Positions 1,849 to 33,947 of a stretch of 64,000 bases of DNA are shown here, one piece after another. The notes under the pieces were generated by a model. That model did no database searches and had not been told where the DNA came from. It saw nothing but the letters and a program-made list of their open reading frames with translations. This DNA comes from a virus. Its lineage: Duplodnaviria > Caudoviricetes. A program made the translations under genes and the position numbers. The DNA is taken from positions 773-64,772 of the IMG/VR virus record IMGVR_UViG_3300021960_007579, one strand, 5' to 3'. The first letter of the stretch is position 1; every line of letters starts with the position of its first letter.

Positions 1849-3330
1849 ATGTTATTTGAGGATTTAGAAATTAGTGGATCATTAAGAGGTCAAGGGGTAA
1901 CAAAACCACCAAGGGGTTCTCGTGCGGCAAGACCATCATCGCCGGAGACGGGTTCTTTATTTTTAGAACAAAATAGTCTTAATACTGGTTGGACTGATTA
2001 TGGTGGAAACTCCGCAAACTACACAGTGATAGATGCCGATAACATCATCATAAAAAATACATCAACAGGGTGGATAGGTTATTTTGTTGCCAATACCACA
2101 ATGATTGCTAAACACGTTGTCCAATTTACCTATAGTACATCCTCGGGCACATCATCTTTAGTTGTGGATAATGATGGTATTGACGATAATACATTTAATA
2201 CAACATTATCGGTAACAACAACCCCACAGGTTTATAGAGGGGTCGTAACAACCACAACCACAGGACAGATAAGAATGTTCTTAAGACATAACGGTGGGGG
2301 AGGTGACATAACCATTAGTAATTTTAGGTTAGTTGAGGAGATTAATGAAGGTAAAAACTACTTAACGGTCTATACTGGTTTAAGTAACAACGATAGTGGT
2401 TGGGAAAGGATCGCCAACCAAAACAAGTTTGGTAACACGGCTTATAAGTATAGACATGTTATTGCTTATTCATATTTGGCGGGTGGTTATAAATCATCCT
2501 CACCGTGGAAGAACGTACATAAGACAGTAAATGCCACCGACCAAACATCACATGTTGGGGAGTTATTGGATTATCCTGCATCATATACTTCTGGTGCTTG
2601 TAGTAGGTTTATATTCTTTATGTGGTCTGTAAACACGGACAATGCGTGGAAATCCGCGGGGGAGATTCACGGAACATATACATCTGCAGTAAACATGTGG
2701 AATGATACAAACTACGCTCACCAAGCTAAATTTGATACAACAATTGCGAGAAGTGATTTAGGTACTATGTTTAAGGAACAGACCTACGCTTACTTGTTCA
2801 GTGGTGGGTCTGCTACCGTTGAAATATTTGATTTAACAAACGAGAGTTTAATCACATCATACACATTATCAACAATAAATGGTTCTGATGGTGGGTCCGC
2901 CTTCTCAGATGAGAATTATGGTTATGGTTGGACCGCAAGTGCGGGGGTAAAACTAAATTTTGCCACTGAAACATTTACATCGTCTCCTCATTGGGGTAAC
3001 CACTCACAACAAAAAGGTATTAGTTCAAAATTGGGTAAAGGTTATGCCGGTAATGAAGGATCATATTCTGGTGGATATAACCTCAGAAGATGGAGTAACA
3101 ATACAGATACTAACTTAGGTAATGTGGCGAAACCTGACGGTAACTGTGGTGAAGAGAATTTCACTTTGGGTCAGGATTGGCAGTACATGTTAGGTAACTA
3201 TAATGGTTTACAAAATAATAATAGTTGGAAGTTTACATACGCAACTGATACGGGGGTGTTGAATCCTTCGGGATTGTCACCTGGTGTTAATCCAGGTACC
3301 TCATCGGGTCATTGTGGTTGGAGAGATTAA
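1849..3330 (+). CDS. Paralog 2 with an inserted carbohydrate-binding-like beta-sandwich
   Basis: Same N and C motifs as paralogs 1 and 3, plus an ~125-aa insert (TGWTDYGG...ITISNFRLVE). Confidence 0.55.
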   Translation: MLFEDLEISGSLRGQGVTKPPRGSRAARPSSPETGSLFLEQNSLNTGWTDYGGNSANYTVIDADNIIIKNTSTGWIGYFVANTTMIAKHVVQFTYSTSSGTSSLVVDNDGIDDNTFNTTLSVTTTPQVYRGVVTTTTTGQIRMFLRHNGGGGDITISNFRLVEEINEGKNYLTVYTGLSNNDSGWERIANQNKFGNTAYKYRHVIAYSYLAGGYKSSSPWKNVHKTVNATDQTSHVGELLDYPASYTSGACSRFIFFMWSVNTDNAWKSAGEIHGTYTSAVNMWNDTNYAHQAKFDTTIARSDLGTMFKEQTYAYLFSGGSATVEIFDLTNESLITSYTLSTINGSDGGSAFSDENYGYGWTASAGVKLNFATETFTSSPHWGNHSQQKGISSKLGKGYAGNEGSYSGGYNLRRWSNNTDTNLGNVAKPDGNCGEENFTLGQDWQYMLGNYNGLQNNNSWKFTYATDTGVLNPSGLSPGVNPGTSSGHCGWRD

Positions 3331-8806: not shown

Positions 8807-9733
8807 ATGAAGAATGAAAAAAGACCATTGTTATGGTTGGTCAACTCGTTGGATACGATCATGAAGTTCGTTAACAACAAAACAATGTTAGTTTTATTAT
8901 TGGTGGTTCTGTTTAGTTCAAACTCATTTGGACAATATACAGGACGAGCCCTAAACAATGGGGAAGAACCCACAGATTCAATTAGAAGTCTAAAAGAGGT
9001 CGTAGTAACGGCAAGAAAATATTCTCAGTTTGAATTAGTGGGGGAAAATCAACAACCCGCGTGGACACTAGTCAGAAAATTTCCATCTACGAGAACTTAT
9101 ATTATGGTGCCAAAGGGTACTGTAATGTATGAGAAATGGTTTGACGCAAGAACCAAAAGAAATGATGGTGGAACTGAACTAAGAATGAGGGATGAATTCG
9201 CCTTTGGTCTGGCTAAGAGATTAGAATTAGATTTATACCTCCATACAGTATACAAATACTCGGGTGAGAACTCAACCTACGGTTTTAGAGGTTTTTCATG
9301 GGAAGTTAGATACGCACTTGCCGATTGGGGAAAGTTATGGGGTAATCCAACACTATATTTCGAACACAAATTACTTGATGGTAAGAGAATGGGTATAGAA
9401 CCTAAATTACTATTAGGTGATCGTATCGGTAAGAATGGTATATGGGGGGTTAACCTAATCTATGAAGGTTATGTGGCAAAAGACCGAATCAATCAAGAAA
9501 GGGAGTACGCCTATACCGCCTCTTATGGTAAGATCCTCAATGATGATTTAACTATTGGTGTGTCTAATATGTACAGACATAATGATGTGGATGGGTCTAA
9601 TGAATGGTATTTAGGTCCCGCCCTCCAATATAGATTCAACGGAAATGCATATGTTAACTTGGAGGTACTACCAGGACTAAACCAAGACGCTAAACTGTTT
9701 AGAAACACAATTATATTCGGATGGAGATTCTAA
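8807..9733 (+). CDS. Outer-membrane beta-barrel protein with signal peptide
   Basis: Hydrophobic signal segment, LKEVVVTA motif, alternating amphipathic strands, C-terminal FGWRF; true start may be 8861 or later. Confidence 0.65.
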   Translation: MKNEKRPLLWLVNSLDTIMKFVNNKTMLVLLLVVLFSSNSFGQYTGRALNNGEEPTDSIRSLKEVVVTARKYSQFELVGENQQPAWTLVRKFPSTRTYIMVPKGTVMYEKWFDARTKRNDGGTELRMRDEFAFGLAKRLELDLYLHTVYKYSGENSTYGFRGFSWEVRYALADWGKLWGNPTLYFEHKLLDGKRMGIEPKLLLGDRIGKNGIWGVNLIYEGYVAKDRINQEREYAYTASYGKILNDDLTIGVSNMYRHNDVDGSNEWYLGPALQYRFNGNAYVNLEVLPGLNQDAKLFRNTIIFGWRF

Positions 9734-10725
9734 TAAAAGGACAACACTTTTTACTATACCTAACCTTTATAATGTTTGTGACGGGTATCCTTAAAGATAA
9801 AGGGTACCTATCTGACATTTTTAGATGGTTAGCACAAAATGTGAAGTCAAAGAAGATGGTTGTCTTCTTAGTCTCCCTCTTCGGTGGAGTGTTACCAATA
9901 CCCGGTAGAGTGGCACTATCGGCAAGTATGTTAAACAGTATCGCACCTGTAGATAACAAGAAGAGAAAGAAGTTTGGTATCATTGATTACCTCGCAACTC
10001 ACCACTACTATCTGTGGTCACCTTTAGAGAAGACGGTGATTATACCGATGGCGGTTATCGGATTCACCTATAAAGAATTCATGGGTTACGTGTGGCCGCT
10101 ATTATTAATTAGTGCGATTTATATTCTTTATTACATAATTACACTAAAGGATGATGAGATCGATATTGAAATAAGGGATGGTGAAATAAATTGGAAAAAC
10201 TTTTCATTGGTTATTCTACCATTTATTGGAACTATCCTAATCTCATGTTTTACCGATTTTTACTTTGAGTCGTTTACCCTTTTTACGTTCTACCTAATAA
10301 CTTATTCTAAGTCGTGGAAAAGTTTGTACGGGTATGTAAATGGAGAGTTATTAGTAATTGTTGCGGGAGTAATCATATTAGGTAATATCGCCAACACGTA
10401 CTATGACGACATTGAGAATTTGATAAGAAACTACTCAGAACCAGAACACATTGTCATTGTATCGGTTTTAGGGTTTCTTGCATCCTTTTTAATGGGGTCG
10501 TCGGCAAAATATGCGAGTATTGTTAGTCTATTAACAGTTGTATTCGGTGTTGAATATTTTGTCCTGTTTTTTACTTTAGAATATTCGGGATATTTAATAT
10601 CACCATCTCATAAATGTCTACCGATAGGACAAAAATACTTTCACACAGGATTTCTTACCTATCTAAAGGCATTGGTGATTTGGATAGGATTAATGATAAC
10701 ATATTCACTTTTAACAGTGATTTAG
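9721..10725 (+). CDS. DUF401-like / ion-transporter-superfamily inner-membrane protein
   Basis: About 9-10 TM segments; GVLPIPGRVALSA and GYLISPSHKCL motifs. Confidence 0.6.
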   Translation: MEILIKGQHFLLYLTFIMFVTGILKDKGYLSDIFRWLAQNVKSKKMVVFLVSLFGGVLPIPGRVALSASMLNSIAPVDNKKRKKFGIIDYLATHHYYLWSPLEKTVIIPMAVIGFTYKEFMGYVWPLLLISAIYILYYIITLKDDEIDIEIRDGEINWKNFSLVILPFIGTILISCFTDFYFESFTLFTFYLITYSKSWKSLYGYVNGELLVIVAGVIILGNIANTYYDDIENLIRNYSEPEHIVIVSVLGFLASFLMGSSAKYASIVSLLTVVFGVEYFVLFFTLEYSGYLISPSHKCLPIGQKYFHTGFLTYLKALVIWIGLMITYSLLTVI

Positions 10726-22433: not shown

Positions 22434-24251
22434 ATGAAAGAAACTATATTTTCACAAAGAGTCAATTACGCAATAATAGAGAAGTACAAGAATTACTCTC
22501 ATCTTTCACAAAAACCAAAAGACATGTCTATCGACATTGTTGGTAGAGTGTTTGAGACTAACCACCAACCATCGTTTGTCGATATTGTTAATTTACCACC
22601 ACCCGAGGTTCGAGGTAAAAAACTAAAACAACTGTTTCATTTTATATCACCAAAAAAAGATGGGGAAAGACTCAGAGTTTGTAGAGCACCCATGGGTGGG
22701 ATGTTTTTAACCCAAGATTCACAGAAGATAGGTAAAGCGTTGTCGGACCCATTCTCAAACATTAATATTTTTACGAGAGAGAATATAATTACTCGGGAAG
22801 GTAATGTTGTTAAATTAGTGATGGATGTGTACACAAAACACAAAGATTTTAATCACAAATTTGCGAGGAAAAGGATAAATAAGGTAACCATAAAGTTTGA
22901 TTTTGATAAGGGGAACACCCTGATAATGAAACAAAGAGGTAACCATAAAGAATTTAGAACCAACTCTTTATGGTTTTTTGACGAAATTGATTTTGAGTAC
23001 TTTAAAAATCTATTCCCTAAGAGTGCTAACTCTCGCAACCAAACGCTATCTAAGAAACATAAGGATATAGAAGTTCTTATGAATATGGGTATCTTGATAT
23101 TAACCTTAAAGGCGGTTTGTGATCAATACATTAAGTTCGATGAACCCACCTCGAAATTGAACTTCTTTACAAAATTGAATGATCACCGTGAAAGGTTCAC
23201 TCTGAAACAAATATCCCTTCTTAATTTGGTTAAGGGTAAAGGAATAAAAGTGAACAACAATTACGAAGATATTTTAATAAACCTATACCCCACACAAAAG
23301 TATCTTAAACGAAACGGTTACAAACTAATACAATCCTGTTTGGATAGAATGGGTATAAAACATTCACCCTGTATTAAAATTGCCCATAATAATTTCACCC
23401 ATACATGGTTAATCCTAAAAATTAAAACCATTGTAGGTAACGACTACTACAGGTATATCTCAAACGTAAAGTGGTCACACGTAACTTTAGATTATGATAT
23501 TCTCGTAAACGGTAGAATGAGATACCAAGTGTACGGTGAAATTGATGAAAACCAACCACTAAAAAGTAAAAGGGAAAAAACAAACTTCATTAAAATTTTG
23601 AACGAGGTTATTACCAGTGATGTAATGACTAACGATAGTCTAACTCAATTTATTGGGGATATCATTGACCACATTAGAATAATGGATAAAATTTCTGATA
23701 TAAATCCATATATCTCTTTAAATGCGTGTACATACCAAACCTTTATGGAAGAGCATAGGGTTTACTCTAAGATAGAACGTAGAATGGACAGAGACTCAAC
23801 AATTCTAATTGAGTATGATGAAAATTTTATAGACATAATGAATGAACCATTTGATATGGATGGTTACACCTTTAAACCCGTAGTATTGGTCAATGAGGAT
23901 CAGTACATTGATGAGGGTGAAGAAATGAACCACTGTGTTGCGGGATACATCACAAACAGGAACTCAATAGTTGTTAGTTTATGTGAAACCACAACAAAGG
24001 AAAGATCAACCTTAGAGTATGATACCTTAACAGGTGCATTAAAACAGGAAAGATCAAAGTACAATAAAAAACCTGTAGACTATCTTTTAAGAGCCACTAG
24101 AATTATGACTGAAAGGATTAACTCCATTCAAAGTTCTATGAGAAATGGTGAACGAAAACGTATGGATAGGAATGGAAATTATATCGATTATATACAAGAA
24201 AAAAAATGGGGTGATTTCCGCGGTGTACAGAGATTTCCCATAGACTTTTAG
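22434..24251 (+). CDS. PcfJ-domain protein
   Basis: EGEEMNHCVAGY, RSTLEY, QERSKYN; TATATTTG promoter at 22408. Confidence 0.75.
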   Translation: MKETIFSQRVNYAIIEKYKNYSHLSQKPKDMSIDIVGRVFETNHQPSFVDIVNLPPPEVRGKKLKQLFHFISPKKDGERLRVCRAPMGGMFLTQDSQKIGKALSDPFSNINIFTRENIITREGNVVKLVMDVYTKHKDFNHKFARKRINKVTIKFDFDKGNTLIMKQRGNHKEFRTNSLWFFDEIDFEYFKNLFPKSANSRNQTLSKKHKDIEVLMNMGILILTLKAVCDQYIKFDEPTSKLNFFTKLNDHRERFTLKQISLLNLVKGKGIKVNNNYEDILINLYPTQKYLKRNGYKLIQSCLDRMGIKHSPCIKIAHNNFTHTWLILKIKTIVGNDYYRYISNVKWSHVTLDYDILVNGRMRYQVYGEIDENQPLKSKREKTNFIKILNEVITSDVMTNDSLTQFIGDIIDHIRIMDKISDINPYISLNACTYQTFMEEHRVYSKIERRMDRDSTILIEYDENFIDIMNEPFDMDGYTFKPVVLVNEDQYIDEGEEMNHCVAGYITNRNSIVVSLCETTTKERSTLEYDTLTGALKQERSKYNKKPVDYLLRATRIMTERINSIQSSMRNGERKRMDRNGNYIDYIQEKKWGDFRGVQRFPIDF

Positions 24252-26774: not shown

Positions 26775-26783
26775 GATATTTAT
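26775..26783 (+). promoter_or_regulatory. Putative phage late-promoter motif (G/A)TATTTAT
   Basis: Same motif just upstream of genes at 27281, 30843, 33936 and 53373, and on the minus strand near 22380, 37450, 44465, 57620 and 62583. Confidence 0.5.
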
Positions 26784-26787
26784 CTAT

Positions 26788-27279
26788 ATGTTGATATCCG
26801 AACAAATCAAACGTATAAGTCAGTTAATGGAGGTTAAATCCATCAGTAGACCCGATATAGAGGGTGAGATGGAAGAAATCCAAAGAGTCGCTCAATATCT
26901 TAATAGGGAAGAAGGTTTCCACGTTAAGGTACAAGAGTTGGTCGATATATTCGATAAGTCAACCGAGACTACATTGACCGACGATGTGTGGGAAAAACTT
27001 GAAAACACCGAATCTAATGAGATTGAGAAAGGTGATATGAAGGGGGCTTACAATGTCTCTAAGATGTATGGTAAGAGCAATCCCGATAAACTAAAACGTA
27101 AGTTTGAGGATGGTTCATACAAGAGACCACTCATTCTAAAGTTCGGAGATAGATACCACTTAGTTGCTGGTAACACAAGACTGTCCACTGCGGCGGGAAT
27201 GGGTATCAACCCCAAAGTGTTCATTGGAGTATTAAGTACGGAAGATCAGATGGATACTGACAACAATTTAGATAAATAA
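26788..27279 (+). CDS. ParB/Srx-like domain protein with N-terminal leader
   Basis: RPLIL...YHLVAGNTRL. Confidence 0.6.
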   Translation: MLISEQIKRISQLMEVKSISRPDIEGEMEEIQRVAQYLNREEGFHVKVQELVDIFDKSTETTLTDDVWEKLENTESNEIEKGDMKGAYNVSKMYGKSNPDKLKRKFEDGSYKRPLILKFGDRYHLVAGNTRLSTAAGMGINPKVFIGVLSTEDQMDTDNNLDK

Positions 27280-27303
27280 AGTATTTATATATAAAAGAAT
27301 TCC

Positions 27304-28800
27304 ATGGAAGAATTAAGTAAGAAAGATATACTCACAATTTTGGGTGAAAACCTTACGGATAACCGTCATGCGGGATACCAAGGTTTTGACGAAGAAGAAG
27401 TTGATGAGATGGCACGTACAAAATATAAGGTCGATAAGAACACGGGACAAATGATTGTTGACCCTAAGTGGCCAAAGAAGGGTATTCCAACAGACGAACC
27501 ATCTAAAGCGGGTGCTAAATTCCAAAGATTTAGACCGATGTACTCACCTCCTTACGAGACTGAAGATGAGAAAGAACCAAGAGAACACGTTGGTTGGTAT
27601 TATTTTAAAGATGAGAATTCCGAACCAATACCATTAGTTTTCACTTGTGAGTGGGATGAATTAACTGAGAGAGAGCCTAAGTTGGTCCCAATGCTTCAGG
27701 AAAAATACGGTAATGTCATGCTAGTTAATGACAACTGTCCTACCGACGAACCAAGAGGTAAAGGGTCTTATAAGGCCGAGCCAATTCCGGGTGAAGAGGG
27801 TGATGAAATGGATATTGAAAAGAGCTTCATTACTCCAGGTATCGATAAAGAGACTGGTGCCACGACAACAATCCCAACAAGAACTAAAATATTAAACACA
27901 TTAAACTCAACATTAAATGAGTTTTCATCTGATGAAGAAGTAGTAAACACACTTAAGAAATTAAGTTTACCACCAATTATCACTGATAATAGACAGAACG
28001 TAACGGACGATGCAAGGGTATACCCACACGTTAATAGATATAGTGAAGTAAATAACGAAGACATTGAATTTGAATCACATTCAATCCAAACCTATCCAAG
28101 TCAGGAAATGTTCTTGAGACACACAACAACGTCTTTAAGAAAACCGGTAGAACAGATTGAGAAAGTCCCAACATTCGGAATTAGAAGAAAAGTTACACAC
28201 AGAACACGTAATTGGGATCCACTTATCTTTACCTCCAGTACTAACTTAGGTAAAACACCCGTTCTTAATTTAAATACATATGATTTCCCTGAAGATGATT
28301 TCGAGGTAATGGTTATGTCCCAAATTAAGATCTCAGGTAAAGCTATTCAAAAGAATCAAAACGATGAGGTTGAAAGATGGGAATGGAGTCTAAAGTATGA
28401 TGTGGATTATGCAAAGAAATTACCAGGGGAAAGACAGGCATCGAAACTTAAGAATGATGCTCAGATTGTAAAAAGAGTTGTTATTGATTTAGACAACCCC
28501 CAGAAATTTGACGGTAAAACAATTATGACAGGAACCGATGATGCATCTACACCTGTTAAAATTGATAGAGAAAGAAGTGATTTCGGTTCGAACCACCCAC
28601 TGACAGACGAAAAAATTAAAGAAGGTTTAATAGAGTTATTGGATCAGTTTAAAAACGAACTTAAGAGCACCAATCCAAATATGTCAGTACAAAGAGCATT
28701 GGCAACATTTAGAGATGAAGGTGCGATGGCATTCCAAGAAAGACCAAGTCTTAATGAAAATGAAATTAAGAGTTTGATCCATAAGTTTATGAAGGGTTAA
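27304..28800 (+). CDS. Hypothetical acidic protein, possibly virion-internal
   Basis: 498 aa; late motif upstream; terminator downstream. Confidence 0.7.
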   Translation: MEELSKKDILTILGENLTDNRHAGYQGFDEEEVDEMARTKYKVDKNTGQMIVDPKWPKKGIPTDEPSKAGAKFQRFRPMYSPPYETEDEKEPREHVGWYYFKDENSEPIPLVFTCEWDELTEREPKLVPMLQEKYGNVMLVNDNCPTDEPRGKGSYKAEPIPGEEGDEMDIEKSFITPGIDKETGATTTIPTRTKILNTLNSTLNEFSSDEEVVNTLKKLSLPPIITDNRQNVTDDARVYPHVNRYSEVNNEDIEFESHSIQTYPSQEMFLRHTTTSLRKPVEQIEKVPTFGIRRKVTHRTRNWDPLIFTSSTNLGKTPVLNLNTYDFPEDDFEVMVMSQIKISGKAIQKNQNDEVERWEWSLKYDVDYAKKLPGERQASKLKNDAQIVKRVVIDLDNPQKFDGKTIMTGTDDASTPVKIDRERSDFGSNHPLTDEKIKEGLIELLDQFKNELKSTNPNMSVQRALATFRDEGAMAFQERPSLNENEIKSLIHKFMKG

Positions 28801-29648: not shown

Positions 29649-30311
29649 ATGATAACACTATTCGATACTTATGAACAAATGTCAGAGTACGTCGCATCAA
29701 TAGTTGCGGAGGAAATAACAAACAACCCCAACCTACGTTTAGGTTTACCAACCGGATCGACACCGATCGGGATGTACAAAAACCTAATCCAATTCGACTT
29801 GGATTGGTCCAATGTAAAAACTTTCAACTTAGATGAGTATGAGGGGATTAGTCATTCACATCCTGAATCGTATCATATGTTTATGAATAAGAATCTATTC
29901 CTACATGTGAATTTAAATAAAGAGAACATACACTTCCCCGATGATCAGTACGATAAAATTATTGAGGGGTTAGGTGGATTGGACCTAACCATTTTAGGTA
30001 TTGGTCATAATGGTCACATTGCATTTAATGAACCAGGTTCTTCGGTTACCTCTAGAACTAGAAAAGTTAAATTAACTGAAGAGACTATTAGTGCCAACAG
30101 TAGATTCTTCGATTCCATAGACGAAGTCCCAAAGAGGGCGTTTACTATGGGATTAAAGACTATTAGAGAATCAAAGAAAATAATTGTAATTGCCAACGGT
30201 CAAAGTAAGTGGGACATTTTAAATGAGTGTTTCTATGGTGAGTTGAGTAAGGATAGACCCGCAAGTATTTTACAGGTACACCCAAACATTGAGGTCTTTT
30301 ATGCCGGTTAA
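29649..30311 (+). CDS. nagB: Glucosamine-6-phosphate deaminase
   Basis: LGLPTGSTP, TFNLDEY, LGIGHNGHIAFNEPGS, PASILQ. Confidence 0.95.
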   Translation: MITLFDTYEQMSEYVASIVAEEITNNPNLRLGLPTGSTPIGMYKNLIQFDLDWSNVKTFNLDEYEGISHSHPESYHMFMNKNLFLHVNLNKENIHFPDDQYDKIIEGLGGLDLTILGIGHNGHIAFNEPGSSVTSRTRKVKLTEETISANSRFFDSIDEVPKRAFTMGLKTIRESKKIIVIANGQSKWDILNECFYGELSKDRPASILQVHPNIEVFYAG

Positions 30312-30834
30312 TAAACTCATGATTGTTGCCCACCCAGACGATGAAACCCTATTCGGGGGTGGTGAGCTGTTGAAGTGTAAGGGTGAATATAAGGTTGTTT
30401 GTTTGGACTACGGAAACCACTTAGTTAGGCACAAAGAATTTATTTGTGCTATGGAACTTTTAGGTGTTGAGAAATGGGAGCATTGGGATGGGGAACCCTA
30501 TAAATCATCAGTCTCCTATAATGAATCGATACTCATACCTAGATTGGAAAGGGTATTAAAAGAAAGGGAATGGGAAAAGGTGGTGACTCACAATCAAGGA
30601 GGTGAATACGGACATTACAGACACATTGGAACACATAACGTTCTTGTTCGGTTGTGTCCCGAAAAACTATGGGTCTTCGACACCTGTATTGATTACCCCT
30701 TAACTGAGGAGATAAAAATAAAAAAAGGTGAAATACTTAAAGACTGTTACCCAACACAGAAACAAGTCCTTAGATGGTTCAAATGGGATTGTGAAAGAAT
30801 AATCAAATATGATGTGAATCAAGTCCACATTTGA
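30301..30834 (+). CDS. PIG-L/LmbE family N-acetylhexosamine deacetylase
   Basis: VAHPDDE, THN..GEYGHYRH. Confidence 0.85.
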   Translation: MPVNKLMIVAHPDDETLFGGGELLKCKGEYKVVCLDYGNHLVRHKEFICAMELLGVEKWEHWDGEPYKSSVSYNESILIPRLERVLKEREWEKVVTHNQGGEYGHYRHIGTHNVLVRLCPEKLWVFDTCIDYPLTEEIKIKKGEILKDCYPTQKQVLRWFKWDCERIIKYDVNQVHI

Positions 30835-30868
30835 TTTACCATGTATTTATATATAAGAAAAGAATATT

Positions 30869-31144
30869 ATGGAAATAGATTTAAAAAAAATCATTTCGGC
30901 GGTAAGAATTAAGATATCACCTACGGAGGAGCAGAAAGAATTGGCTCTTAAGAGGTTGGAGGTATGTAACGGATGTGAGTTCAGATCAAGGGATATTAAC
31001 AATCCCCTTTGTAGATGTCTTTCATGTGGTTGCTTTATAAATGCTAAAGTATTTACTGATATCTATTCCGATTGTCCGCAAAATAAATGGAGCGAGGTTG
31101 ACAAACCATACTTCAAAGTAAAAAATGAGAAAACATTAATATGA
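30869..31144 (+). CDS. Small Cys-rich protein
   Basis: RLEVCNGC...CRCLSCGC...CPQNKW. Confidence 0.75.
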   Translation: MEIDLKKIISAVRIKISPTEEQKELALKRLEVCNGCEFRSRDINNPLCRCLSCGCFINAKVFTDIYSDCPQNKWSEVDKPYFKVKNEKTLI

Positions 31145-32754
31145 AAGGCGTTTTATTAGCAACAGATTACGTTAAAGACAACGATGGATCATTTAAAATT
31201 TTAGAAACGAATACCTCAATTGTTGTTGCCACAACCTACTTCAAAAATTATTTTAACAGCCAATCGTTTATACAATTAATCAATGATAATGGTATCGACG
31301 AAGTCTATGTGATCCTACCCAAAGGTTCTGGAACTGTCGATGTAAATGATTTAAACAAAAATGAAGGTGACAATATAAGTTATTGGGTATATGCAATTAA
31401 CGATGGTTTGCCGGAGACAACCACGTTTGAGATAAAAGTAAGTCAAAGTAATCTTTTCCCATCCATTGATGTGGAGGACGCCCCAAATAGACTCCTACTG
31501 AGAGTTTGTTTTGATACTAACGCATTAATCGACGAGACCTACGCTAAAGACAACTTCAATTTCTTTAAGTTATTACACGATAACAATTCTTCTAACATTT
31601 GTCCCACGTACTTTAATGATGGTAATGGGATATCTATGGATCTATTAGGGACCGACTTAAGAGATAACGGGGCATATCCAAATTATATAATTAAAAACAG
31701 ATACCCAACATCGGATTATAATGAATATCCCAAGGTATTAAAAGTTAACTCGGTGGAGGATTTAAATATTTTAAAAGGTTCTTTATTACCTGACGAATTA
31801 TTACAGGAGTATATTATTAATACGGATGATTTAGTCGAAGGGAAAATAAAAACCTATAGGACTGTACACCTACTTTATGGTAACGAATTAAATGTGTTAG
31901 ATTTTATGACACCTTATATACACACCAATAGGGTATCCATAGATCCCAACGTTGATTACAAACCTAATGGACAAATTGAATTATGGGAAAGACCTAAGTT
32001 TATACAAAAGATAGGTAACAAAAATTTAAACAAAAATTACCACACCTATTCTGTATCTAAGGTTATTGATTCTAACGGAAACCTAAGGACTGTTAACAGT
32101 ATGTCTGTTGGTGAAAGTGTAAGATCTTTAAGTTTATACAACCTTAATTTAGATAACGATCACAGATGGCCATCTTATAGTGAACCCGTAAGTCAGGTCT
32201 ACTCCAATAGTCCACTCGCAAGTTCTATCATTATCAGTAATAATTATGGTTCTGATTTGGTGGTAATTAGTGAAATAACATTAGAAGATGGTACGATTTT
32301 TTTAAACGGTCTTTTAGGTGTTTGTTTAACGGTAGATCCTACGGATAATGTGGTTTTCCAAGAAGTAAAAAACCTTAAGGTGGGGGATAAATTAGTTATT
32401 CATAGATTTAGCGACGACCAAATGGAAACTAAAACAATCACAGATGTTGGTTTCACATTCAAAGAGGTGACTAGACACTTCTTCGATGTGGAAGAAAGAG
32501 ATTTGTATTTTATTGTTGAGAACTCCGAGTCACCAAGCTACTATATGGTACAACATAACCCTCCGGGAGTATGTTCATGTTATAGGTACGGCTCGGGTTG
32601 TTTTTGTCCAGAACCTTGTATAACAACACTTACGTGTGAACAGCATGGGGATAATTTTGCCCAAAGGGCGGAATGTTGTACCTCGGCTATGATTTGTGAA
32701 GGTAAGGCCGCGGTGGATGAGGGTGAGGCACTTTGTACGGATGGTGAGAAATAA
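31141..32754 (+). CDS. ATP-grasp-like domain fused to a Hint (intein-like) domain and a 64-aa, 10-Cys C-terminal peptide
   Basis: DYVKDNDGSFKILETNT, YIIK, LLQEYI; Hint-like VKNLKVGDKL...FDVE..DLYF...VQHN; Cys-rich tail. Confidence 0.65.
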   Translation: MKGVLLATDYVKDNDGSFKILETNTSIVVATTYFKNYFNSQSFIQLINDNGIDEVYVILPKGSGTVDVNDLNKNEGDNISYWVYAINDGLPETTTFEIKVSQSNLFPSIDVEDAPNRLLLRVCFDTNALIDETYAKDNFNFFKLLHDNNSSNICPTYFNDGNGISMDLLGTDLRDNGAYPNYIIKNRYPTSDYNEYPKVLKVNSVEDLNILKGSLLPDELLQEYIINTDDLVEGKIKTYRTVHLLYGNELNVLDFMTPYIHTNRVSIDPNVDYKPNGQIELWERPKFIQKIGNKNLNKNYHTYSVSKVIDSNGNLRTVNSMSVGESVRSLSLYNLNLDNDHRWPSYSEPVSQVYSNSPLASSIIISNNYGSDLVVISEITLEDGTIFLNGLLGVCLTVDPTDNVVFQEVKNLKVGDKLVIHRFSDDQMETKTITDVGFTFKEVTRHFFDVEERDLYFIVENSESPSYYMVQHNPPGVCSCYRYGSGCFCPEPCITTLTCEQHGDNFAQRAECCTSAMICEGKAAVDEGEALCTDGEK

Positions 32755-32780
32755 AATTAATATAATAGAAAAAAAATATC

Positions 32781-32921
32781 ATGTCAAACGAAAATAAAAC
32801 CTACACAACAATAAGTGAGATAACTCCTATTGTTGATAAGACAACAGAGTCAGACACCGCAGCTTTAAATGCAATATTTCATTCATTTGTCCAAATGATC
32901 AGAGACAAACATTTGATCTAA
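32781..32921 (+). CDS. 46-aa microprotein (not in ORF track)
   Basis: MSNENKTYTTISEITPIVDKTTESDTAALNAIFHSFVQMIRDKHLI*. Confidence 0.6.
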   Translation: MSNENKTYTTISEITPIVDKTTESDTAALNAIFHSFVQMIRDKHLI

Positions 32922-32958
32922 ATTTGATATTATAAAATATTTTTTTTATCTTTCTCTT

Positions 32959-33228
32959 ATGAAAAATATTGAGAAGATACATGAGATGTACCCGGATATG
33001 GATTTTTTACAAGCCGACGGGTTTGATGAAGCAATCGTCGGGGTTGAGCCATTAAGTGGTAAATTAATATATAATATTACCAAGATGATGTGGGTTTTAG
33101 TAGATGAAGGGCTCTCCACTGAGGAAGCAATGGAATACTTAGATTACAATGTTCTTAACTCGTATGTTGGAGAACAAACACCGATTTACATACAATCAAT
33201 AGAAGATTATGATACCAACAATGACTGA
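32959..33228 (+). CDS. Conserved phage hypothetical protein
   Basis: ADGFDEAIVG...EEAMEYLDYN..NSYVGEQTP. Confidence 0.75.
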   Translation: MKNIEKIHEMYPDMDFLQADGFDEAIVGVEPLSGKLIYNITKMMWVLVDEGLSTEEAMEYLDYNVLNSYVGEQTPIYIQSIEDYDTNND

Positions 33229-33421
33229 AGCCTATGAAAAGGCGATCAAGGTTATTAACAGTTGTAAGAATGAGGTACAATTAGAAGGTGCCTTTAATTA
33301 CTGTAATAATTTTAAGACCCAATTCACTATATTGGGTGGAGATGAAATCCTTATTAATATCTATCACAAAGATCTTTTGTCCCATCTCTCAAATATGATT
33401 GGTGAAACTTACAGAAACTAA
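33209..33421 (+). CDS. Hypothetical protein
   Basis: KVINSC..QL.GA.NY motif. Confidence 0.6.
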   Translation: MIPTMTEAYEKAIKVINSCKNEVQLEGAFNYCNNFKTQFTILGGDEILINIYHKDLLSHLSNMIGETYRN

Positions 33422-33947
33422 AATAAAAGATTGTTACATCATTGAATGGGAAAGGTTTGATGATGGGAGAGGATATTTTAATATCCCTTTTAATGTTGAC
33501 GACTTTAATAGTTTAACAGGATTAAATTTTTCGGTAGTCCAAGAGAATGAATCCTATTCCATTAAAAACGTAATAAGGGGACTACACTTCCAAAAACCAC
33601 CGTATGAACAATCTAAATTAGTTAGATGTACACATGGAATGGTGTTGGATGTGATTGTCGACATAAGAGTTGGATCATCCACCTACGGTAATGTTGTAAA
33701 GGTGCCTCTTCATGCGGGGATACAAAGATCTGTCTTTGTCCCTAAAGGTTGTGCCCATGGATTCTCAACCAAATCAAAGTCCGCCATTTTTAACTATAAA
33801 GTGGATAATCCCTACAATAAAGAAAGTGAGGGAGGGATTATTTTTAACGATCCCGATTTAAATATTAATTGGGAATTAATTAAGGGACCATTATTATCCC
33901 AAAAGGATTTAGAACTACCCTTTTTTAAAGATTTGGATATTTATTAA
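33399..33947 (+). CDS. rmlC: dTDP-4-dehydrorhamnose 3,5-epimerase
   Basis: DGRGYF, QENES.S..NVIRGLHFQ, KLVRC, VPKGCAHGF, YKVD. Confidence 0.93.
   Translation: MVKLTETKIKDCYIIEWERFDDGRGYFNIPFNVDDFNSLTGLNFSVVQENESYSIKNVIRGLHFQKPPYEQSKLVRCTHGMVLDVIVDIRVGSSTYGNVVKVPLHAGIQRSVFVPKGCAHGFSTKSKSAIFNYKVDNPYNKESEGGIIFNDPDLNINWELIKGPLLSQKDLELPFFKDLDIY

Follow-up and report, generated by a model that had tools for sequence, protein, structure and literature searches.

We propose that a conserved module of three genes in an uncultured aquatic phage is built around a 537-aa ORF, and that in it a single chain releases a cysteine-rich peptide from its own end and the ligase carried on the same chain acts on that cargo; we would give this reading an even chance of being correct. 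The window, by which we mean the whole 64,000-nucleotide stretch of DNA analysed, encodes the module on its plus strand. The ORF (31141–32754, stop codon counted in) falls into three parts, as an earlier note on this DNA had claimed and as the ORF list, the predicted folds, including an AlphaFold2 model, and the homologues bear out: a circularly permuted, ATP-grasp amide-ligase-like domain (residues 1–295; 31141–32025), delineated by its fold and invariant residues; a degenerate Hint domain, which we call Hint0 (residues 296–473; 32026–32559), delineated by structure matches and column counts; and a cargo of 64 aa with 10 Cys (residues 474–537; 32560–32751) that ends in Lys537 (codon 32749–32751). 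Upstream lies the gene of a 91-aa six-Cys partner (30869–31144), recognized in the ORF list and in homologue loci, whose end overlaps the start of the 537-aa ORF in the sequence ATGA, and downstream lies that of a basic micro-protein of 46 aa (32781–32921) ending in R-D-K-H-L-I. The AT-rich ‘late motif’ behind which the genes had been placed is present as a putative signal at 30844–30857, 11 nt 5′ of the ATG of the six-Cys gene, and a copy with one mismatch occurs at 27282–27295, 8 nt before an ORF starting at 27304; the number of matches in the window, however, is not clearly above chance (43 against 31 ± 6 expected, with 43 reached in 3 of 100 shuffles). A sigma-70 scan near the module gave background level, and promoter and terminator scans around it gave values at or below background. 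The window also encodes fibre-like paralogs and many glycan-related genes. Homologues numbered 73 in the first search; 103 unique sequences entered the column counts, the N-domain was represented by 311 sequences at 50% identity, and sequences of no fewer than 126 further viral contigs were retrieved. Given the 73 homologs and 311 N-domain representatives, the features of the ORF lie far beyond chance.

Folded alone, the N-domain gave a model with pLDDT 79 and pTM 0.74, and the best 28 of 50 structure matches to it were all ATP-grasp enzymes, among them GspS (2io7; Z 9.8, rmsd 3.9 over 212 residues), YgiC (7uka; Z 9.7, rmsd 3.6 over 205 residues) and eukaryotic glutathione synthetases (Z 7–9.4). 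The whole-protein model led to the same ATP-grasp result in the structure search (Z 9.2–9.8 overall), and these values (Z 9–10, rmsd ~4 Å for the N-domain) are only moderately higher than the background of Z 7–8 quoted by the search tool. Permuted ATP-grasp types align from residue 1, whereas classical types align only from about residue 48–54. The motif order read in the earlier note, D...ExN before YIIK before LLQEYI, is real (D9..E22-x-N24, then K185 in YIIK, then Q222-E223 in LLQEYI) and involves residues kept in 102–103 of the 103 homologs: D9, E22 and N24 occur in 102, the lone exception being a gap, and K185, K212, Q222, E223 and R240 in all 103. The complete invariant set comprises D9, E22, N24, T25, R121, D125, D131, N176, K185, K212, Q222, E223, R240 and D272, of which D9, E22-x-N24, K185, K212, Q222-E223 and R240 are presumably involved in Mg/ATP binding, by analogy with ATP-grasp enzymes (an acidic residue with E-x-N, a phosphate-binding Lys, a Q/E hinge and an Arg) and by the YgiC register. 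That register is given alike by the structural superposition and by hhalign, whose sole local match between the N-domain and YgiC (E 0.23) sets D9..E22-x-N24 on YgiC residues 101–124. Sequence searches were silent: no Pfam family matched the 537-aa protein at E ≤ 1, no ATP-grasp Pfam model matched any of 35 family members at E ≤ 10, GSP_synth (PF03738) found nothing on this genome while the E. coli and Caulobacter controls were positive, and the N-domain had no significant link to PHROGs. A protein-atlas look-up of residues 1–295 returned ATP-grasp-type and GshA clusters with scores of 0.90–0.94, a weak family call by the tool's own figures. The structural models thus identify residues 1–295 as a predicted circularly permuted ATP-grasp fold, in keeping with what had first been suspected, and the domain is modelled as an active-looking amide ligase of the GspS, YgiC and eukaryotic glutathione synthetase type.

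The AlphaFold2 model of the 537-aa protein (pLDDT 81, pTM 0.71) places behind the ligase a domain that matches 1at0 with Z 17.7 and rmsd 1.9 over 141 residues, and inteins and BILs with Z 13–16.7 in alignments that end at residue 473; 28 intein, BIL or Hedgehog structure matches score Z ≥ 9.3, and Foldseek gave a match with E 1.8e-7 and TM 0.83. The Hint-like region recognized from the sequence is therefore borne out as a fold; its start has shifted to about residue 298–301. No Hint Pfam model was reached by the 537-aa protein, and the profile of its own family, searched against solved structures, found only BIL2, which it matched in the Hint part (E 0.08). The terminal Asn of solved inteins aligns with Asn473, whose codon lies at 32557–32559, as already stated, within the His472-Asn473 pair (32554–32559), at which, going by conservation and the intein alignment, Asn cyclisation is predicted to bring about C-terminal cleavage. 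Conservation of this pair in homologs had been set beforehand as a check, and Asn473 was found in 103 of 103 unique sequences and His472 in 99. Columns 300–303 carry no conserved nucleophile; column 301 holds H33, S16, N10, D10, T9, I9, K7, Q6 and others. The +1 residue is Pro474 in the window, and across its clade (n=103) it is P23, Y19, A14, K14, I9, F6 and others, with Ser in 2, Thr in 1 and Cys in none. Measured against class 1 inteins, Hint0 has neither a position 1 nucleophile nor a +1 Cys/Ser/Thr, and has the C-terminal His-Asn. As the N-terminal nucleophile is lost and His-Asn kept, splicing, earlier deemed unlikely for want of an N-terminal Cys and with Pro at +1, is excluded, and C-terminal cleavage is the only plausible reaction. 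The same holds for a second clade of relatives: 33 of its 53 sequences carry Ser or Thr at +1, yet splicing is impossible there as well for want of an upstream thioester. Block B is also lost, and by our reading of the alignment the block-F histidine is apparently replaced by an invariant Asp454, a swap that makes the cleavage competence of Hint0 less than certain. The conservation pattern indicates a Hint domain of whose chemistry only the C-terminal His-Asn step is left, and self-release of the peptide by the predicted cleavage at Asn473 is well supported by the comparison of homologues.

The part to be released stands out in composition: the 64-aa tail has the 10 Cys that had been counted in it, and the preceding 473 residues hold only 3, in line with 0–5 Cys in the ~470 residues upstream of the cargo throughout the window clade. 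Cys counts are even in 99 of 103 window-clade cargos (102 of 103 once Peptidase_S74 segments are removed), and the last Lys is one of the four final residues in 98 of 103. Second-clade cargos (n=53 unique) are 26–33 aa long and all have 6 or 8 Cys; a single Lys is present in 53 of 53, penultimate in 47, and 28 have no Asp or Glu at all, compared with 10 acidic residues in the window cargo. Cargo length ranges across the family from 1 to over 200 residues. Aligning homologs had been suggested as a way of seeing whether the tail is hypervariable, and it does evolve fast: the closest relative is 97% identical in the ligase, 96% in the Hint and 66% in the tail, and near-identical contigs from three further studies diverge at 32587–32595 and 32626–32690. 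Searches of the window protein and 35 members against Pfam matched no toxin family to the tail. The sequences thus describe the predicted cargo as a fast-evolving mini-protein with paired cysteines and a conserved terminal Lys. We also considered a tryptophan halogenase tracking cargo Trp content and set the idea aside: the link is weak (a median of 3 Trp with a halogenase against 2 without), and in the two first-clade loci that have a halogenase, Trp is missing from cargo residues 1–40.

The suspected link of the big gene to both flanking small ORFs is real. In all 45 first-clade loci the six-Cys gene adjoins it in the same orientation even though the gene order varies (upstream of it in 17, downstream in 28), and 71 of 82 second-clade loci have the six-Cys gene too. 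The micro-protein gene is the next one after the big gene in 44 of the 45 first-clade loci and was found in 59 of 82 second-clade loci by HMM and in 20 more by position and ending. Locus conservation therefore argues that both are real partners of the 537-aa protein; a complex prediction of the latter with the 91-aa partner scored 0.01 against a mark of 0.32, a value that counts neither way on binding. The six-Cys protein has the pattern CxxC...CxxCGC...CP..KW, a mean column identity of 52% with invariant residues, and a C-terminus, ...K-T-L-I, that is a form of a tag shared with neighbouring enzymes. It matches phrog_13558 (E 7e-11), and a distant relationship to DUF6171 (PF19668) is possible, as this model scores 19.8 bits with the window protein, under the cut-off of 27, and matches 13 of 32 six-Cys members at E ≤ 0.01 (best 7.2e-6). 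The micro-protein family ends in K-x-K-H-L (consensus of 82 unique sequences), and among the short motifs of the module none is better conserved than this C-terminus.

Relatives elaborate on this plan. In some, another self-cleaving domain follows, so that the cargo is enclosed between two; this second one is a canonical Hint or Peptidase_S74. In one clade Peptidase_S74 starts right after ...C-N-x-x-K; its model matches 15 of 17 relatives from profile position 1 (best E 2.4e-6; 22.6 bits against a cut-off of 22 in the first member), and its start motif S-D-x-x-x-K has S1, the cleavage Ser, D2 and K6 invariant in the relatives. The window protein lacks this domain. Other relatives have a canonical Cys1 Hint within the linker ahead of the terminal Lys, and the extra downstream Hints of distant relatives begin with Cys. 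PT-HINT (PF07591) matches distant relatives, as well as the extra Hints that these carry, at E values as low as 2.6e-21; it gives no match to the window protein, and only 1 of 35 members reaches E 0.057. Relatives often sit in islands of tagged tailoring enzymes, with oxygenase, halogenase and radical-SAM neighbours, which supports the RiPP-like flavour that the earlier note had sensed; the window has none of these enzymes and contains the minimal three-gene module only. The shared tag is an [ST]-hydrophobic-hydrophobic C-terminus, found in 398 of 761 second-clade same-strand neighbours against 6 in shuffled controls. K-x-K-H-L was tried as the common tag and rejected, since it occurs once per locus. 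Some members lack a cargo: in certain ones only 1–8 residues follow His-Asn, and in others tandem canonical Hints end in ...HNK. His-Asn itself is lost in P0156, P0162 and P0122. The two tandem-Hint loci retain the N-domain and the micro-protein, and no six-Cys protein was seen there. Cargo-less variants make up about 22–26 of 110 representatives with a Hint0 match, a count based on approximate regex classes in which at least 4 of the 10 rows classed as ‘no HN’ carry a His-Asn slightly further upstream.

How might the module work? A single chain comprising ATP-grasp ligase, Hint0 and Cys mini-protein would be translated, after which Asn473 would cyclise and cut the chain behind itself, freeing a ~7-kDa cargo with Pro474 as its new N-terminus. 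The cysteines of the freed cargo may then pair as disulfides or become otherwise cross-linked. The ligase would spend ATP on one amide bond in the maturation or attachment of the cargo, most probably at its conserved C-terminal Lys end, where an acyl phosphate would form on the terminal carboxylate to activate it, or else the amine of the Lys side chain would serve as nucleophile. The six-Cys protein and the micro-protein would be obligate helpers or co-substrates. A more ambitious version of this scheme, which we offer tentatively and hold to be rather improbable as it stands, is a peptide-making route led by an enzyme and dispensing with a leader, in which the chain's own ligase and a one-shot autoprotease replace the leader, tailoring enzymes are recruited through the shared C-terminal tag, and the ligase rings or attaches a disulfide-rich product. 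The reactive ends would be the freed N-terminus and the single C-terminal Lys or carboxylate. The ligase might close the peptide head to tail into an ATP-made, cyclotide-like ring, a closure that in relatives with a downstream Cys1 Hint would proceed through a thioester; or it might use the only Lys of the peptide to weld it to a target on the virion or in the host.

Each part of the chain recalls a known system and departs from it. GspS (2io7), YgiC/YjfC (7uka, 7uk6) and the eukaryotic glutathione synthetases, the best structural matches of residues 1–293, have the same domain order, with a D..E-x-N hairpin before the Lys strand and the Q-E hinge. According to RefSeq product names and the available part of PMC12568646, YgiC and YjfC are peptidyl-polyamine synthetases, and enzymes of the GspS/YgiC type are amide ligases that activate a peptide C-terminal carboxylate. 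The window domain, in contrast, has no significant sequence similarity to them (no Pfam match, GSP_synth negative, hhalign E 0.23), spans ~295 residues without an amidase or an extra N-terminal domain, and is fused to a Hint and a peptide. Hint0 shares its fold with type A BILs (C. thermocellum 2lwy; Tetrahymena BUBL BIL2 6tmm and 6y75; Z 15.4–15.6). These end in His-Asn, lack a +1 nucleophile and yield mainly cleavage products, according to the portions of PMC4031507 available; cleavage rather than splicing is likewise expected of Hint0. Unlike them, Hint0 lacks the thioester-forming Cys1, which rules out an upstream thioester and leaves C-terminal cleavage alone. BIL2 forms an isopeptide bond between a Lys-epsilon amine and a C-terminus, as far as the accessible text of PMC8616854 goes, and this joining recalls the conserved cargo Lys, but Hint0 stands behind an enzyme domain and not between ubiquitin-like domains. 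Graspetides and microviridins also encode an ATP-grasp enzyme with a short, fast-evolving peptide, and oxygenase, halogenase and radical-SAM genes lie beside our relatives. Here, however, the peptide is fused behind enzyme and autoprotease instead of being encoded as a precursor of its own with a leader, and the window ligase belongs to a different structural branch. Lactone or lactam rings of the graspetide type would be impossible in the 28 second-clade cargos devoid of Asp and Glu; for the window cargo, with its 10 acidic residues, the sequence does not exclude such chemistry. Pretoxin Hints of polymorphic toxins sit just before a variable C-terminal module, which they are thought to release. 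Hint0 is placed similarly, and the extra Hints of relatives match PF07591; here, though, a ligase fold takes the place of a secretion or filament domain upstream, the predicted released part is a Cys-rich mini-protein of 26–200 aa rather than an enzymatic toxin, and the setting is a phage. The Peptidase_S74 chaperone of phage tail fibres and spikes (GA-1 neck appendage, 3gud) follows the cargo in one relative clade, behind a Cys-rich mini-domain predicted to be released by the Hint rather than behind a fibre shaft, whereas the window cargo simply ends in Lys.

The cargo-less members bear on whether the ligase works on the cargo: as they keep ligase and micro-protein without a Cys cargo, the essential job of the enzyme may lie elsewhere. 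We think it unlikely, yet worth weighing, that the ORF is a pro-enzyme, with Hint0 and tail forming a removable cap or targeting piece that times or places the ligase, and with a substrate that could be the K-x-K-H-L end of the micro-protein, a tagged C-terminus of one of the island enzymes, some polyamine or a molecule of the host. Members with 1–8 residues after His-Asn or with tandem Hints keep the N-domain, the two tandem-Hint loci keep the micro-protein and show no six-Cys protein, and the strong conservation of the micro-protein C-terminus relative to the other short motifs, the tag on 398 of 761 second-clade neighbours (6 in shuffled sequences) and the action of the nearest structural relatives on peptide C-terminal carboxylates (from the available part of PMC12568646) would all suit such substrates. 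A disposable cap, however, would have no need of a Cys framework, a single terminal Lys or a second self-cleaving bracket, and the cargo-less variants are a minority (about 22–26 of 110 representatives with a Hint0 match, in approximate classes).

The tail itself invites two other explanations. Its being the fastest-evolving part of the protein, the even Cys counts, which suggest an extracellular, oxidised product, the ever adjacent small partner gene and the PF07591 matches of distant relatives and extra Hints (E down to 2.6e-21) would fit an arrangement like that of polymorphic toxins, in which, at lysis, Hint0 frees a disulfide-rich peptide that is antimicrobial or blocks a receptor, the six-Cys protein serves as immunity or folding factor, and the ligase has an unrelated role. 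We judge this quite unlikely: immunity proteins usually co-vary with their toxins, whereas the six-Cys protein is well conserved (52%) while tails diverge, and it bears the C-terminal tag of the tailoring enzymes, which groups it with the helpers; upstream there is no secretion or trafficking domain but an enzyme with invariant catalytic-type residues, and no toxin family was matched. More improbable still is a purely structural role, without any cut at Asn473, in which the Hint merely supports the fold of a protein associated with the virion or a fibre, and the Cys-rich end is its knob or metal-binding domain. One clade does end in the kind of intramolecular chaperone that trimeric tail fibres and spikes typically have, and the fibre-like paralogs and the many glycan-related genes of the window would accord with it. 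But a pure scaffold hardly explains why Hint0 has shed the N-terminal nucleophile and block B and holds invariant just the pair for C-terminal cleavage, cargo lengths vary from 1 to over 200 residues, and no structural PHROG or Pfam family was matched.

What would self-release of a peptide and ligase action upon it mean for these phages? The earlier note knew of no described system with this architecture, and that holds across the papers, Pfam, PHROGs and phage genomes searched: the ATP-grasp–Hint–peptide layout was not found in Pfam or PHROGs, tblastn with the whole protein, the N-domain and a second-clade member found nothing in 50,697 deposited phage records, a set that may lack this genome and its near kin, and no paper was found to describe the fusion, including the available parts of PMC2938197, PMC11118758 and PMC7824862, although the supplementary tables of PMC2938197 and PMC7824862 could hold one. 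The module may be an undescribed viral way to make or attach small peptides. If so, it would embody a new logic for peptide natural products, with an autoprotease and a ligase instead of a leader peptide, and would offer a candidate substrate for the unexplained oxygenase/halogenase arrays of aquatic phages; such arrays are described for cyanophages, with no substrate named in the accessible part of PMC2938197. It could also supply tools, namely a natural Hint that cuts at its C-terminus only and a ligase that may be specific for the ends of peptides. That the cargo changes so fast between near-identical strains points to a role in an arms race, fought where phage meets host or another phage. 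If the proposal is true, phages would own a compact and widespread route to small cysteine-rich peptides, in which enzyme, release device and product are one chain.

The 537-aa protein of the window (31141..32754, + strand) joins an N-terminal ligase domain (residues 1-295) to a degenerate Hint domain, Hint0 (residues ~298-473), and a 64-aa Cys-rich tail, the cargo (residues 474-537). This design appears made to excise a small Cys-rich product whose N-terminus is fixed and whose C-terminus bears a Lys, because an invariant His-Asn is kept in an otherwise stripped Hint, Cys parity is strict, a single Lys stands at the end and the cargo is repeatedly bracketed by a second self-removing domain. 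No description of an ATP-grasp–Hint–peptide fusion was found in the main-text literature searched. The protein has no match in Pfam or PHROGs and no relative among 50,697 deposited phage genomes. A word-indexed search recovered 73 relatives, 71 of them 513-672 aa long and two, both distant, bearing Hint-type Pfam domains, and a scan of viral contigs yielded 44 related loci. The alignment set for this first clade comprises 103 unique full-length sequences. A second clade was fetched as 80 viral loci from the distant member P0100 and two from P0186. At E <= 0.001, a profile of the N-domain alone reached 311 family representatives (50% identity level); in all but a few apparent fragments among the 150 listed, it matched the N-terminal end of the protein. 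In the first clade, mean pairwise identity falls from 0.45 in the ligase to 0.27 in Hint0 and 0.25 in the tail, and to 0.15 in the tail once Cys positions are left out.

AlphaFold2 models were obtained for the whole protein (pLDDT 81, pTM 0.71) and for residues 1-295 alone (pLDDT 79, pTM 0.74). When the N-domain model was compared with solved structures, ATP-grasp enzymes filled all of the top 28 rows, led by E. coli glutathionylspermidine synthetase (2io7, Z 9.8, rmsd 3.9 over 212 residues), YgiC (7uka, Z 9.7), a nematode glutathione-synthetase-like protein (Z 9.4) and 3k1t (Z 9.0). Permuted-order enzymes superpose on the model from residue 1, whereas the classical ATP-grasps RimK, LysX/ArgX, TTLL and Ddl do so only from about residue 50; this supports the circular permutation proposed in the earlier note. 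By sequence, the N-domain has no Pfam match, the GSP_synth model matched nothing in the window genome and hhalign against YgiC gave E 0.23. The sole local hhalign match places D9..E22-x-N24 on YgiC residues 101-124, in the same register as the structural superposition. Fourteen residues (D9, E22, N24, T25, R121, D125, D131, N176, K185, K212, Q222, E223, R240 and D272) are invariant in 102-103 of the 103 sequences. YgiC carries the RefSeq product name peptide--spermidine ligase, and a 2025 paper names YgiC and YjfC peptidylpolyamine synthetases (PMC12568646). The closest structural kin of the N-domain are thus enzymes that activate a peptide at its C-terminal carboxylate.

Hint0 resembles the Hedgehog autoprocessing domain most closely (Z 17.7, rmsd 1.9 over 141 residues), together with mini-inteins (Z 13-16.7) and the BIL domains of C. 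thermocellum and Tetrahymena (BIL2; Z 15.4-15.6). The structural alignments stop at residue 473, which corresponds to the intein end; Asn473 is kept in all 103 homologs and His472 in 99. Little else of the active site is left. The position-1 column holds no conserved nucleophile in the 103 sequences, F406 alone is retained in the block-B region, and in the block-F region E451 and D454 are conserved, D454 occupying, on our own reading of the alignments, what would be the place of the His of canonical Hints. The residue after Asn473 is Pro in the window and Cys in no member of its clade. Hint0 is therefore not an intein and splicing is impossible, as had been suspected from the sequence at the outset; the chemistry that would remain to it is that of the C-terminal end of a type A BIL. 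At nine loci (L007-L015, big gene 6001-~8046) the Hint0 region measures 319-323 aa rather than the usual ~178 through an insertion of ~145 residues; the one scanned, from L014, had no Pfam match.

Across the 103 first-clade sequences the tails span 51-203 aa (median 66) and carry 6-16 Cys, an even number in 99, while the ~470 residues ahead of them hold just 0-5. A Lys lies among the last four residues in 97. In one sub-clade the cargo ends in ...C-N-x-x-K(P) and runs directly into a domain of 73-86 aa that starts S-D-x-x-x-K-x-N (L017, L018, L019, L022, L026-L031, L034, L037, L038, L040, L041, L044 and L045). In 15 of the 17 members this domain matches Peptidase_S74 from profile position 1, with a best E of 2.4e-6. 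Among solved structures its top match, a weak one (E 0.47), is to the chaperone released from the GA-1 neck appendage protein, and the alignment begins at the first residue of that chain. With an S74 intramolecular chaperone behind it, the cargo therefore lies between two different self-cleaving domains, and the predicted S74 cleavage ahead of its Ser would leave the cargo with a Lys end. After S74 removal, the Cys count is even in 102 of 103 sequences and the last Lys stands at most four residues from the end in 98. P0032 (672 aa) has an additional insert of ~125 residues between Cys-rich segments of its tail. Divergence at close range is concentrated in the tail: the window and its closest relative, P0001, are 97% and 96% identical in ligase and Hint0 and 66% identical in the tail. 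Contigs from runs belonging to three other studies share ~97% identity with the module. Within the cargo they show indels at 32587-32595 and a stretch of 65 bases (32626-32690) whose divergence prevents alignment, which together mark a strain-level hot spot. One more run, the fourth, is nearly identical and may be where this DNA came from.

The cargos of the second clade are more uniform. All 53 unique ones share a single scaffold of 26-33 aa with a C-W-C start, six Cys (49 cargos) or eight (four), and a Gly/Pro-rich linker followed by Lys and one hydrophobic residue. Each contains exactly one Lys, penultimate in 47, and 28 of the 53 lack any acidic residue, so that their sole carboxylate is the C-terminus. 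Seven relatives (L046, 4001-5926, with P0100, P0103, P0107, P0113, P0115 and P0117) carry a canonical Cys1 Hint between the six-Cys core and the short Lys-bearing end, resembling an intein-like insertion whose +1 residue is not a nucleophile. Elsewhere (L126, 988-3192; L127, 4001-6205; P0186, P0191 and P0197) two or three canonical Hints directly follow the His-Asn, the protein ends ...HNK(K) and a Cys-rich cargo is missing; the micro-ORF is retained at L126 and L127. Some relatives have just 1-8 residues after His-Asn, and three others have lost it. An approximate, regex-based sorting of 141 further representatives gave 68 with a Cys-rich tail only, 18 with canonical Hints after His-Asn, four with tails of <=10 residues, two with other tails, ten whose predicted end lacks His-Asn (parser offsets in four or more), eight truncated and 31 with no Hint0 hit, mostly fragments.

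Two small proteins accompany the big gene. The 91-aa partner (30869..31144, +) has six invariant Cys in the pattern CxxC...CxxCGC...CP..KW, matches phrog_13558 (E 7e-11) and, below cut-off, DUF6171. It adjoins the big gene on the same strand in the window and all 44 related loci, upstream in 17 and downstream, beyond the micro-ORF, in 28; the linkage has thus persisted through a change of gene order. Of the 82 second-clade loci, 71 have the partner. Five misses are contig-edge cuts, four are loci with Cys cargos where none was found within 1-4 kb, and two are the tandem-Hint loci L126 and L127, which have no Cys cargo and no such protein in their flanks. The 46-aa micro-protein (32781..32921, +) directly follows the big gene at 44 of 45 first-clade loci and is present at 79 of 82 in the second (59 by HMM, 20 by position and ending). 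Its consensus is essentially Cys-free, with ~19% Lys plus Arg and the end ...a-i-K-x-K-H-l.

Second-clade modules often lie in islands of tailoring enzymes. One cluster of 2OG-Fe(II) oxygenases, often multi-copy, is found at 80 of the 82 loci, with a GDSL-type hydrolase at 55, a tryptophan halogenase at 52 (Pfam E 1.4e-103), a radical SAM enzyme at 14 and several recurrent proteins of unknown family. Cyanophage arrays of dioxygenases and halogenases were termed unprecedented in 2010 (PMC2938197), where the passages on these arrays name no substrate. Halogenase presence is weakly linked to Trp content, so the island is context and not proof. A C-terminal [ST]-[LIVF]-[LIV], usually preceded by Lys, closes 398 of 761 same-strand ORFs (52%) in the second clade (L046-L125) against 6 when shuffled, and 98 of 609 (16%) in the first (L002-L045) against 1.

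What, then, would the ligase act upon? We favour a single amide bond at the C-terminal end of the cargo, which would serve as acyl donor or react through its Lys amine, since the structural kin of the ligase work on the C-terminal carboxylate of peptides, and many cargos offer just that carboxylate and a single Lys. The ligase is also kept by members of the family without a cargo, which makes the conserved end of the micro-protein, or the tagged enzymes, a serious alternative substrate. Relatives bearing an extra Cys1 Hint have two precedents: BIL2 forms an ATP-independent isopeptide between a Lys-epsilon amine and a C-terminus (PMC8616854), and in the type A BIL mechanism a thioester is attacked by a freed amine (PMC4031507).

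The window itself is part of a 64,772-base record of an uncultured virus (CheckV completeness ~19%). Its three module ORFs are tightly packed, the start codon of the big gene overlapping the preceding stop codon in ATGA; there are no terminator-like sites within 30200-33500, and promoter-like sites around the module are at background level only. The AT-rich motif that the earlier note called late is present at 30844-30857, with a one-mismatch copy directly ahead of the ORF starting at 27304; its matches are not clearly in excess (43 against 31 +/- 6 expected). Near-identical motifs at 27282-27295, 26777-26790 and 30844-30857 stand a few bases 5' of the gene starts 27304, 26788 and 30869, and may be a phage promoter or leader element. 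The module neighbours, at 29649-30834 and 33399-33947, are sugar-modifying genes (glucosamine-6-phosphate isomerase-like, E 2.7e-20; PIG-L-type deacetylase, E 2.1e-12; dTDP-4-dehydrorhamnose 3,5-epimerase, E 1.5e-59), shared by just 2 to ~10 of the 44 related loci. Further afield are adjacent paralogs at 693-1835 and 1849-3330, both matching phrog_1417 of unknown function (E 3e-46 and 2e-47), and a 605-aa protein with a PcfJ-like domain (22434-24251, E 4e-9). Most other large ORFs have no PHROG match, which marks a very poorly charted phage. By BLAST, none of the recurrent second-clade neighbours occurs in the whole 64-kb window, and the C-terminal ending is found on two of its 94 ORFs, the six-Cys partner (...K-T-L-I) and a membrane protein (9721-10725). 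This phage therefore carries a minimal module, and what it contributes to the family is a version of just three genes, whose long 10-Cys cargo has no Trp and varies from strain to strain.
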